Assembly (NCBI GenBank): GCA_964583985.1
Contig: CAZOYD010000019.1
Coordinates: 1-54,462, forward strand
Origin: an uncultured archaeon
GTDB lineage: Archaea > Asgardarchaeota > Lokiarchaeia > Sigyniarchaeales > SOKP01
Reading direction: 5' to 3'
Length of the DNA stretch: 54,462 nt
Below are positions 23,568 to 44,605 of the stretch, in pieces; position 1 is the stretch's first letter, and each line of letters starts with the position of its first letter. The position numbers and the translations under genes were made by a program. Under the pieces are notes generated by a model. It ran no database searches and was not told where the DNA came from. It saw only the letters and a program-made list of their open reading frames with translations.

Positions 23568-23696
23568 ATCGTCTCATTCTCATTACTAGTAGTTGCCCAT
23601 TTTGTATTTATATTAAGGTTAAAAGATTTAAAAAGGTGATAAATACTATATATTTAGATATACAATTAATTTTCAATATAGGGAGCGTGAAAAATA

Positions 23697-24500
23697 ATTT
23701 CGGGGTATATTGGTAAGAAAATTCGGTTGGAAAGAATAATTAATAGAGAAACGAATAAAACCGTAATTGTTCCAATGGATCATGGTTTAACAGATGGACC
23801 GATTAAGGGAATAGATTGCAAGATTGGAGAGATGGTCAATAAAATCGCTTTAGGGGGTGCAAATGCAGTCCTTGGTCATATTGGAATCCCTCTCCACGCA
23901 CATAGGGGATACGGTCCTGATATTGGATTGATTCTTCATTTATCGGGTTCAAATTCTTTAAGTCCTGATGCAAATTATAAGGTTTTAATAAACTCGGTTT
24001 TAGAAGCTGTAAGATTTGGATCAGATGGAGTTTCTTTACATATAAATATAGGAACTAAATCAGATCCTGAAATGCTAGAAACACTTGGTAGAGTTTCTCA
24101 AGAATGCCGAGAATATGGAATGCCACTAATTGCAATGATGTATCCACGAGGACAAAACATTAAAAATGAATATGATGTTGGTGTGGTAAAGATAGTTGCT
24201 CGAGTCGCAGCAGAATTAGGTGCAGACCTAGTAAAAACAAATTGGCCAGGCGATCCCGATTCATTTAAGCAAGTTGTTGATGGTTGTATGGTGCCAGTTA
24301 TAATAGCAGGTGGCGAAAAAACGGGAATTAAAGAGATCATGGAAATTACTAAACAATCTATTGAAGTTGGTGGTGCTGGTGTTGCATATGGGAGAAATGT
24401 TTTTCAAGCAAAGAATCCAACAAATGTGGTAAAAGCATTATGTTTGATTGTGCATAAAAATTACGATGTCACTGAGGCAATGAAAGAGTCAGGATTATAA
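23697..24500 (+). CDS. DhnA-type class I aldolase, likely 2-amino-3,7-dideoxy-D-threo-hept-6-ulosonate (ADH) synthase; predicted ATT start
   Basis: GKKIRLERI, IVPMDHG, LILHLS, MMYPRG, AELGADLVKT, AGG, GRNVFQ; first TTG at 23727 falls inside the conserved N-terminus. Confidence 0.85.
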   Translation: MSGYIGKKIRLERIINRETNKTVIVPMDHGLTDGPIKGIDCKIGEMVNKIALGGANAVLGHIGIPLHAHRGYGPDIGLILHLSGSNSLSPDANYKVLINSVLEAVRFGSDGVSLHINIGTKSDPEMLETLGRVSQECREYGMPLIAMMYPRGQNIKNEYDVGVVKIVARVAAELGADLVKTNWPGDPDSFKQVVDGCMVPVIIAGGEKTGIKEIMEITKQSIEVGGAGVAYGRNVFQAKNPTNVVKALCLIVHKNYDVTEAMKESGL

Positions 24501-32813: not shown

Positions 32814-33767
32814 TTGTCTGAGATTATGAACCAGATTGATATTGTGGGTTTAGGAGAGGTAGTTGTCGATTGGGTTGCTGAAATTCCGCATTTTCCAAAA
32901 CCAGATGAAAAAATTAATGCACTTAGCGAAAATGTTTTTCCAGGGGGAGTAACTGCTAATTATTTAGTCGCAATATCGAGATTGGGAGGAAAAACTGGTT
33001 TTCTAGGTGCTGTAGGAAGTGACTCATACGGGGAATTTCTCATTTCTGACTTTAACAAAGAAAAAGTTAATACAAATTGGATTATAAAAAAAAAAGATAA
33101 AAAGACTCCAATAAATTTTATCATTATCGTAAAAGGAGAGAAGTCAATAATACAATCACCTCATATGTTAACAACTAAATTTGAAATTGCCGATCTTGAT
33201 GAATTTTCAATTAGCAATTCAAAATTATTGCATACTACTATGATCCATCAAGATGTTACAGAAAAGGCAATTGAAATTGCAAAAAAGAATGATATAATCG
33301 TTAGTATCGACTTAGAATCGCAAATTGCTCAAAGGGGATGGATAAATCTAAAAAAAATGATTTTAAAAGCAGATATCATAATTCCAAATAAAGAAGGGGC
33401 AAAAAAAATAACAAATAGTAAAACACCTCAAGAAGCAGCTAAAATTTTGATTAAAAAAGGGATTCCTATTGTAATTATTACTATGGGGAACAAAGGAGCA
33501 TTAATTACAACTAAAAATTATCAAAAAATGATTCCAGCCTATAACATTAAAAATATTGTTGATACAACTGGTGCAGGAGATACTTTTAATGGTGCATTTA
33601 CATTAGCTTATTGGATCAAGAAGTGGTCATTAGAAAAATCATGCAGATATGCAAATGCTGCCGCCGCACTTAAAATTCAAGAATTGGGGGCTCGATCTGG
33701 AATGCCTAATGAAATGGCCATTACTAAATTTTTAAAAGAAAATGATGAGTCTTTTATTGATAGTTAA
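32814..33767 (+). CDS. PfkB/ribokinase family carbohydrate kinase
   Basis: PGG..AN, G.VGSD.YG, PN..E-like, DTTGAGDTF, AN.AAA. Confidence 0.92.
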   Translation: MSEIMNQIDIVGLGEVVVDWVAEIPHFPKPDEKINALSENVFPGGVTANYLVAISRLGGKTGFLGAVGSDSYGEFLISDFNKEKVNTNWIIKKKDKKTPINFIIIVKGEKSIIQSPHMLTTKFEIADLDEFSISNSKLLHTTMIHQDVTEKAIEIAKKNDIIVSIDLESQIAQRGWINLKKMILKADIIIPNKEGAKKITNSKTPQEAAKILIKKGIPIVIITMGNKGALITTKNYQKMIPAYNIKNIVDTTGAGDTFNGAFTLAYWIKKWSLEKSCRYANAAAALKIQELGARSGMPNEMAITKFLKENDESFIDS

Positions 33768-34202
33768 CTAGGAGTAAATTAGACTGATCTTTTTAACATT
33801 ATTCTGATTAATGATTATTTGATCAAATCTTTTCAATATTCCATCATATTGAATTTCATTATAGTTTTGATTAAATGGCCAGAAACCTATCAAGACTTCT
33901 CCTAATTTTTTATTATTACCTATTAAATATCCTTCCTTTTTTTCATTTTTACATACTAACAAAATAACGATATAATAATTAAATGAGAGAGGATTATTAT
34001 TTGCCCCCATAATAATAACTTCTTCTATATTCTGGAAATTAATTAAATCTTCATCAAAATCTCTCAAATTCTTTATTGATGTAATATAATGAGTCATATT
34101 GAGATTTTTATCTGAGATTACACTATTAAAGGTTAAAGATAATGAAGATTCTTGCATTTCACCAATACCTCTAAATATAACTTTATAAAATACTATATTC
34201 AT
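33768..34202 (-). CDS. Hypothetical protein
   Basis: 144-aa ORF filling the intergenic space. Confidence 0.55.
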   Translation of the reverse strand: MNIVFYKVIFRGIGEMQESSLSLTFNSVISDKNLNMTHYITSIKNLRDFDEDLINFQNIEEVIIMGANNNPLSFNYYIVILLVCKNEKKEGYLIGNNKKLGEVLIGFWPFNQNYNEIQYDGILKRFDQIIINQNNVKKISLIYS

Positions 34203-34268
34203 TTAAATCTAACTCGTTAATTAGTAATTATGAATATTTGATTAATCGAAGTCACGGTATTATTAATA

Positions 34269-34610
34269 TTAATTCCGATAAGATTGTTTTATCTGATCTT
34301 GAATGAGGATATTTTCTTCAGGAAATCCTTGATCCATCAAAAACTTTTTCATTTTTAGCTTATGATCTCCCTGTAGTTCAATTTCGTTATTTCTTACTGT
34401 TCCTCCTGATGCACATTTATGCTTTGCTTTTTTCAAAATATCTTTTAAATTTGCATCAAAATTACCTTCGAAAGTTATAACAGTAACGACACGCCCCCAT
34501 TTCCGCTTATCATTAGAAATAATTATTTGCTGCTCATTGGCGCTTAAACTATCACATATACATAGTTCTTTTGGAAAACTACATATCGGACAAATCTCGT
34601 CGTCTTTAAT
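34269..34610 (-). CDS. sui1: Translation initiation factor aIF1 (SUI1); predicted ATT start
   Basis: Manual translation (I/M)KDDEICPICSFPKELCIC...KRKWGRVVTVI...KCASGGTVRNNEIELQGDH; absent from the ORF track because it lacks an N-terminal NTG. Confidence 0.92.
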   Translation of the reverse strand: MKDDEICPICSFPKELCICDSLSANEQQIIISNDKRKWGRVVTVITFEGNFDANLKDILKKAKHKCASGGTVRNNEIELQGDHKLKMKKFLMDQGFPEENILIQDQIKQSYRN

Positions 34611-34818
34611 GTTCTTTCTTCACAACCTTTTTTATTAAAATCTTATAAAATTTAAGTGCTAAAATTTAATAGACCTAAATCTTATAAAAATCTTTTTTAT
34701 TTCGTTGATTAATTAAAAAGATAAATTTTTATTTATGAACCTAGTTTTGTAATTTAGCTATTGAGATAAAAAAGATATTCTATAAAACTATCAACAATCA
34801 ACTTTAAAGTGTGTAATT

Positions 34819-35343
34819 ATGCATAACTCTTGGATTTTTAAAGTCATCATTGCGGGTGCTGGAGGAGTTGGTAAGACGGCGATGGTTACTAGATATTGTA
34901 CAGGAAAGTTCCAAGATGGATATAAAATGACGATTGGGGCTGGATTTAACACCAAATCTGAGGTTTTAGATACGGGAGAAACTGTAAAGATGCAATTATG
35001 GGATTTTGCGGGAGAAAAACGATTTAGAGAATTACTTCCTGACTATTGTAAGGGCGCCAGTGGGGCATTTATATGTTTTGACTTGACAGACTATGATACT
35101 TTTCGTGATGTCCCAGAGTGGCTAAAAATTATTCGTCAAAAAGCAGGGTTCATTCCAATAATATTATTAGGAATGAAATGGGATCTGAAAAATCATGAAG
35201 TTGAACAAGAAGTTGCTCATGATTATGCTGAGAAAGCTAAATGCAATCAATGTGTGTTTTGTTCCTCAAAGGAAGATTTAAATATTGTCGAGTCATTTCA
35301 AGCTATGTCTAAATGGCTTATTTATTACGCATCTCAAGATTAA
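34819..35343 (+). CDS. Rab/Ras-like small GTPase
   Basis: FKVII.GAGGVGKT, TIG..F, QLWDFAGE.RF, MKWD, SSK. Confidence 0.9.
   Translation: MHNSWIFKVIIAGAGGVGKTAMVTRYCTGKFQDGYKMTIGAGFNTKSEVLDTGETVKMQLWDFAGEKRFRELLPDYCKGASGAFICFDLTDYDTFRDVPEWLKIIRQKAGFIPIILLGMKWDLKNHEVEQEVAHDYAEKAKCNQCVFCSSKEDLNIVESFQAMSKWLIYYASQD

Positions 35344-43114: not shown

Positions 43115-44605
<1,491 letters not shown>

Follow-up and report, generated by a model that had tools for sequence, protein, structure and literature searches.

IF3 and eIF1 each hold down their own production by means of a weak start (PMC4705826). The gene for bacterial IF3, infC, has an AUU start, and its translation is under autocontrol (Butler et al. 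1987, cited in PMC4705826); eIF1/SUI1 is autoregulated by an AUG in poor context (Ivanov et al. 2010, cited in PMC4705826 and PMC6237735). Archaeal aIF1 proteins, namely those of M. jannaschii (4MO0), P. abyssi and S. solfataricus, have been shown to proofread initiation. The S. solfataricus factor rejects non-AUG initiation complexes (PMC4705826, PMC6237735), including those on AUU; in its presence the initiation complex binds AUG mRNA and not AUU mRNA in vitro (PMC4705826). aIF1 also favours and stabilises mRNA led by a Shine-Dalgarno (SD) sequence on the 30S subunit (PMC6237735). Hence, feedback by a start-codon proofreader is established for bacteria (IF3) and eukaryotes (eIF1); in the literature searched, which excluded most subscription papers, we found no report of an archaeal aIF1 gene that starts at a codon other than AUG, nor of one that is autoregulated.

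We analysed a 54,462-nt stretch of DNA from an uncultured member of the Lokiarchaeia (contig CAZOYD010000019.1), here called the window. The following features, all on the minus strand, are used below.

34269 to 34610, minus strand: aIF1/SUI1 gene, 113 codons and a TAA stop, taken to begin at ATT (from domain matches and dN/dS)
34608 to 34610, minus strand: putative AUU start codon (ATT in 27 of 27 genus orthologs)
34620 to 34628, minus strand: SD-like motif AGGTTGTGA, 9 nt 5' of the ATT and including an in-frame TGA (from 16S pairing)
34434 to 34436, minus strand: earliest standard start codon in frame, a TTG at codon 59 of 113 (position varies among orthologs)
34554 to 34592, minus strand: four-cysteine zinc knuckle, codons 7-19 (motif as in PMC6237735)
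34606 to 34623, minus strand: out-of-frame 5-codon GTG micro-ORF (probable by-product)
34681 to 34698, minus strand: predicted promoter with a purine-rich BRE and a TATA box (block conserved in a 31-genome upstream alignment)
43116 to 43127, minus strand: 3' end of the 16S rRNA with a canonical anti-SD (same window)

We found that the product of this ORF, which ends at the TAA at 34271-34269, carries a SUI1 domain (PF01253, 64.1 bits against a cut-off of 25.5, E 1.6e-17) and matches the NCBIfam profile NF002096 (113.8 bits, cut-off 98); a search for IF3 domains in Pfam and NCBIfam gave no match at E <= 0.001. M. jannaschii aIF1 (4MO0) matches at E 8e-25 and its residue 3 pairs with residue 5 here; hence, the ATT sits at the expected N-terminus. 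The product belongs to the same family as the three archaeal factors named above and has their zinc knuckle and basic loop. The N-terminal four-cysteine knuckle, found in 64% of archaeal aIF1 (PMC6237735), is formed by Cys 7, 10, 17 and 19, with Ser-Phe in place of the usual Gly-Leu. KRKWGR aligns with the 30S-binding basic loop 1 (R31, Y32 and K34 in P. abyssi aIF1; PMC6237735) and retains its basic-aromatic-Gly-basic character, though the residues are not identical. The gene is the sole aIF1/SUI1 copy in a genome scored 100% complete. Its neighbourhood (window positions 32814-35343) is kept within the genus: a divergent Ras-family GTPase gene lies upstream in 24 of 27 loci, and downstream lie a 144-aa gene without a Pfam match and a convergent pfkB kinase gene in all 27.

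The initial annotation had claimed that this gene starts at AUU, that an in-frame TGA precedes the knuckle, that NTG is absent over about half the protein and that ATT 34610 lies 9 nt after an SD-like motif. All four points held. The start is strongly supported by family-wide comparison (below), the TGA at 34622-34620 closes the frame four codons 5' of the ATT, the first in-frame NTG is the TTG beginning at 34436, and the coordinates of the spacer were confirmed. Since the first in-frame ATG, GTG or TTG comes so late, a standard ORF scan (60 aa) omits the gene. Translation from that TTG would delete the zinc knuckle, and in genus orthologs the first NTG of the frame is codon 16, 41, 59, 72, 91, 94 or one beyond 100; hence, the TTG, whose position is not conserved, is not the real start. 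Codons 2-58, which lie 5' of it, are under purifying selection (dN/dS 0.063). A look-up of the truncated 55-residue product returned no record, which carries no weight, because the reference sequence has Leu as its first residue and genomes close to this one may be missing from what was searched. The SD, the in-frame TGA, the 9-nt spacer and ATT AAA are identical in all 27 genus orthologs having the 5' end, and the start ATT stays fixed while Ile codons 29, 31, 58 and 77 swap among ATT, ATC and ATA across the genus. Comparison of these orthologs shows that full-length aIF1 requires a non-standard start, for which the ATT is the SD-positioned candidate, and translation very probably begins at AUU 34610.

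The SD-like motif is predicted to form a duplex of -7.9 kcal/mol with the 3' end of the genome's own 16S rRNA, whose complete gene lies in the window (43116-44604, minus strand). This value is attained by 8% of 791 confident ATG starts and by 0.45% of 3542 background ATH triplets. The motif is invariant across the genus, and GTGA-to-ATG spacing in this genome runs from 4 to 11 nt. Despite the canonical anti-SD, a clear SD precedes only about 28% of the ATG-start genes. From standard archaeal TATA spacing, transcription would start near 34659 and give a leader of about 50 nt, with the SD inside it. The BRE/TATA block is better conserved than a TA-rich stretch at -30 to -22.

It is improbable that ribosomes enter the frame in some other way, that is, through GTG 34623 with frameshifting or reinitiation, through TTG 34625 with UGA read as selenocysteine, at the ATT of codon 6, or on a leaderless message. 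The GTG has in its favour that its 5-codon ORF is intact in 29 of the 31 loci having this SD and that GTG is in frame in genus g20 and in second aIF1 copies; however, it is not preceded by an SD (-1.8 kcal/mol), its peptide is variable, and it is broken in one relative (G035). The genome encodes tRNA-Sec, but UGA readthrough from TTG-TGA is ruled out by a further in-frame TAA or TAG that many relatives carry after the TGA and ahead of the ATT. Codon 6 is, like the start, an invariant ATT in the genus, yet it aligns with the aliphatic residue that precedes the first Cys in all archaeal aIF1. A leaderless start at the ATT is disfavoured by the strong SD and by the conserved BRE/TATA, which lies about 75 nt upstream rather than the roughly 26 nt of a leaderless message. 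We give practically no credence to an assembly error or a decaying gene, because frame and codon are identical in dozens of independently assembled genomes and the gene is a single copy in a complete genome with a dN/dS of 0.06. The same agreement among genomes disposes of the 1-nt error that would bring GTG 34623 in frame, which the initial annotation had named as fatal to its claim.

The GTG micro-ORF described earlier is present, with five codons and a TAA (34608-34606) that overlaps the ATT. In G035 only two of its codons remain, in another relative (G188) it is longer, and in genus g20 and the second copies it is absent or in a different frame. The SD supplies its start and ATT-AAA its stop; hence, it is probably a by-product that stands outside the mechanism. 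As a candidate regulator it is disfavoured, since it varies, is broken where noted and has no SD of its own, and is missing where the SD differs. We also considered a 12-bp hairpin predicted in aIF1 codons 9-18 (window 34558-34586, minus strand; -8.4 kcal/mol). In this genome, where it was chosen after the fact, it gave p of about 0.01 against synonymous shuffles; over 56 distinct family sequences the median p was 0.18, with almost no two-sided changes. We do not accept it as part of the mechanism, since it is maintained in only part of the family. Eight of the nine nucleotide-invariant codons in the genus fall within codons 1-14, where pS is 0.23 against 0.63 downstream.

Across the family we found ATT at the aligned start of 67 copies, ATA of 6, ATC of 3, GTG of 1 and ATG of none (77 copies from 12 genera, which are kin and not independent); family f21 (4 loci, uncallable) and one masked locus (L425) were excluded from the survey. 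Since the genomes are kin, the shared weak start may be one origin kept by selection. ATT is retained in genera in which the SD sequence has been replaced. Within the SD region, 13 of the 77 copies have an in-frame GTG that could serve instead and in one copy is itself the aligned start, and two second copies additionally have an open upstream ATG. Such second aIF1 copies, about 60% identical, occur in several family genomes with ATT or ATA at the aligned start (L032-L035, L404, L412, L415 and L418), and each may be a paralog or lie on a contaminating contig. With ATT, ATC and ATA interchanging and ATG never at the aligned start, selection appears to hold the codon weak rather than fixed. Orthologs uniformly starting at ATG, the other finding that was to have undone the AUU claim, are thus not seen within the family.

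How unusual such a start is depends on the genome around it. An unambiguous ATG in the relative is matched by ATA, ATT or CTG in this genome in 3 of 188 genes, and the reciprocal count, of relatives with a non-standard start (SD-led ATH, ACG or CTG), is 4 of 208. All seven of these genes have an SD of -5 kcal/mol or stronger, versus about 28-30% of ATG genes. A second screen gave about eight credible non-standard starts among 538 ortholog pairs, and a few more genes seem to need something other than NTG as their start, here as well as in a relative. Among the genes that the two screens brought up are those for eL42, CutA1, a ribbon-helix-helix protein, an M50 peptidase and an Arf-like GTPase. 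By these comparisons the lineage tolerates SD-led ATT/ATA-type starts on roughly 1.5-2% of its genes. Hence, an AUU start is unexceptional here in itself; what is exceptional is that it is locked across the family.

Several other loci also appear to open on non-standard codons. Apparent ATA, ATT or CTG starts were seen on genes for an AN1-zinc-finger M50 peptidase, a ribbon-helix-helix protein, an Arf-like GTPase, CutA1, a methyltransferase and a CoA-ligase-like protein (L275, L277, L278, L281, L282 and L283, on contigs C1, C85, C11, C22 and C2). In the window, the conserved N-terminus of a DeoC/LacD-family aldolase (23691-24500, plus strand) opens at ATA/ATT close behind a TGA that is in frame and forms part of an SD-like motif, its first NTG being codon 13 of the frame, and the aldolase of relative G016 looks similar in its start arrangement. 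A gene of about 89 aa without a Pfam match (L276, contig C1 75895-76185, plus strand) has an apparent ATC start both here and in G016. A Ras-family GTPase frame (L279, contig C1 34081-34635, plus strand) is interrupted by stop codons just before the P-loop GKT, possibly through a frameshift, a broken gene or an assembly error.

Two genes of this kind could be followed among relatives. RpoN/Rpo10 (L160, contig C6, near 27113, plus strand) begins at ATA behind the motif AGGATGTGA; within the genus its starts are ATG in 22 copies, ATA in 4, ATT in 2 and ACG in 2 (n = 30), with a median SD of about -8.5 in the non-ATG copies versus -0.8 in the ATG copies. Ribosomal protein eL42 (L44e; L384/L280, contig C2, 15028-15310, minus strand) begins at ATT in this genome, and its starts across the family are ATG in 16, TTG in 11 and ATT in 3 (n = 30). 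Since the non-ATG genes carry the stronger SDs, the lineage appears to trade start codon for SD strength. L37e starts at ATG in 28 of 30 Asgard genomes; the 30-genome panel was picked mostly for non-ATG aIF1 and measures gene specificity, not frequency. In five family genomes, the genes for aIF1A, aIF2-alpha, aIF2-beta and aIF6 start at ATG 16 times and at TTG 4 times (20 genes), versus ATT, ATT, ATC, ATA and ATT for the aIF1 of the same genomes. The weak codon is thus conserved and specific to the fidelity factor, with ATG in 0 of 77 aIF1 copies versus 16 of 20 other factor genes, 22 of 30 RpoN and 16 of 30 eL42 genes, all counted among kin that are not independent. Hence, among the genes compared within the family, only aIF1 is locked to a weak codon by these start calls.

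The initial annotation had envisaged an archaeal circuit and a tabulation of aIF1 start codons across Asgard. We ran the tabulation, and it agrees with the proposal in the family and disagrees in several other Asgard families, which use ATG. A first survey of Lokiarchaeia covered 16 genera, of which 9 have ATT, ATA or ATC, 4 have TTG or GTG and 3 have ATG. The start is CTG or GTG in Thorarchaeia, ATA in Baldrarchaeia, and ATA, ATT, TTG or CTG in three unnamed Asgard families; Odinarchaeia and most Jordarchaeia are among those that start aIF1 at ATG. Outside Asgard, where the sampled genes differ in starting mostly at ATG, the starts were ATG in 63 of 69, TTG in 5 and CTG in 1, counted within the 80 best matches and not as a census. 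By these calls a weak aIF1 start belongs to several Asgard lineages and not to all archaea, and an archaea-wide scope for the circuit is not borne out. In family f10, genus g49 (under the Heimdallarchaeota record L316), GTG is the start in 10 of 10 aIF1 loci (L055, L056, L058, L065, L068-L070, L080, L081 and L086); the two that were scored have no SD (0.2 and -0.4 kcal/mol), possibly another route to a weak start.

The gene resembles infC in that a fidelity factor's SD-led mRNA appears to start at AUU, with no NTG before codon 59, and the same feedback is predicted for it. It differs in that the feedback is proven for infC while we infer it for aIF1, and in that its host has ATH starts on a small share of other genes as background. 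The protein is a SUI1-family homolog of eIF1, and both genes have a poor initiation signal on their own mRNA; however, the eIF1 gene retains its AUG, in a context that is poor for scanning ribosomes, whereas aIF1 here has dropped AUG and strengthened the SD, so that a poor-context AUG reached by scanning is not found. By this comparison the aIF1 gene would work like infC and involve an eIF1 homolog, but by defining features it belongs to neither.

On the reading we lean towards, and consider reasonably probable, the AUU start has been selected for negative autoregulation of aIF1. The gene would be transcribed from the conserved BRE/TATA promoter with its short leader, and the SD would dock the 30S subunit and set AUU in the P site. 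Initiation there would yield the full-length zinc-knuckle aIF1, a step for which comparative support is strong. Abundant aIF1 would then make initiation on its own mRNA poor, and scarce aIF1 would let it rise; the resulting negative feedback would set start-codon stringency. That this aIF1 rejects non-AUG complexes is assumed by homology. The preference of aIF1 for SD-led mRNA could offset repression, and AUU is possibly just mildly weak, with a low feedback gain, because the same cell apparently also translates a ribosomal protein from AUU.

The AUU may instead be real and yet no feedback device, either a fixed dimmer or an inherited state, acquired early and kept because constant low expression suits the gene or because AUU is hardly weak here. 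We consider this somewhat unlikely. The background is on its side: the roughly 1.5-2% of genes with ATH or CTG starts all have strong SDs, and the RpoN contrast points to a general exchange of codon for SD; in addition, one scored Lokiarchaeia aIF1 gene that starts at ATG has no SD (-2.5). Against it, RpoN and eL42 mostly keep ATG or TTG in the family, whereas aIF1 never shows ATG and yet shifts to ATC and ATA. Low expression is attainable by an ATG without an SD, as in most genes here (median -3.1), and if this aIF1 rejects AUU, some feedback is automatic. The gene-specific controls thus plausibly favour autoregulation through the AUU start.

For annotation, gene callers limited to ATG, GTG and TTG would truncate or miss aIF1, RpoN and eL42, and we estimate, by extrapolation from the sample, that at least 50 other genes per family genome are likewise affected. 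For evolution, the Asgard case would pair a eukaryote-type protein with a bacterial-type signal (SD plus AUU), and it bears on whether eIF1 autoregulation predates eukaryotes.

More tentatively, though it is a possibility we take seriously, the lineage may live under a relaxed regime in which SD-led AUU, AUA and ACG genes form an aIF1-tuned group, with the AUU of aIF1 as its set-point, and the device may span Asgard lineages. If so, the group would take in a few percent of the genes, those for a ribosomal protein and an RNA polymerase subunit among them, and the aIF1 AUU would keep stringency low, so that they can still be translated. Several Asgard lineages would then run the same device with different weak codons; hence, feedback by a fidelity factor would extend to all three domains of life and, within the archaea, to the nearest kin of eukaryotes.
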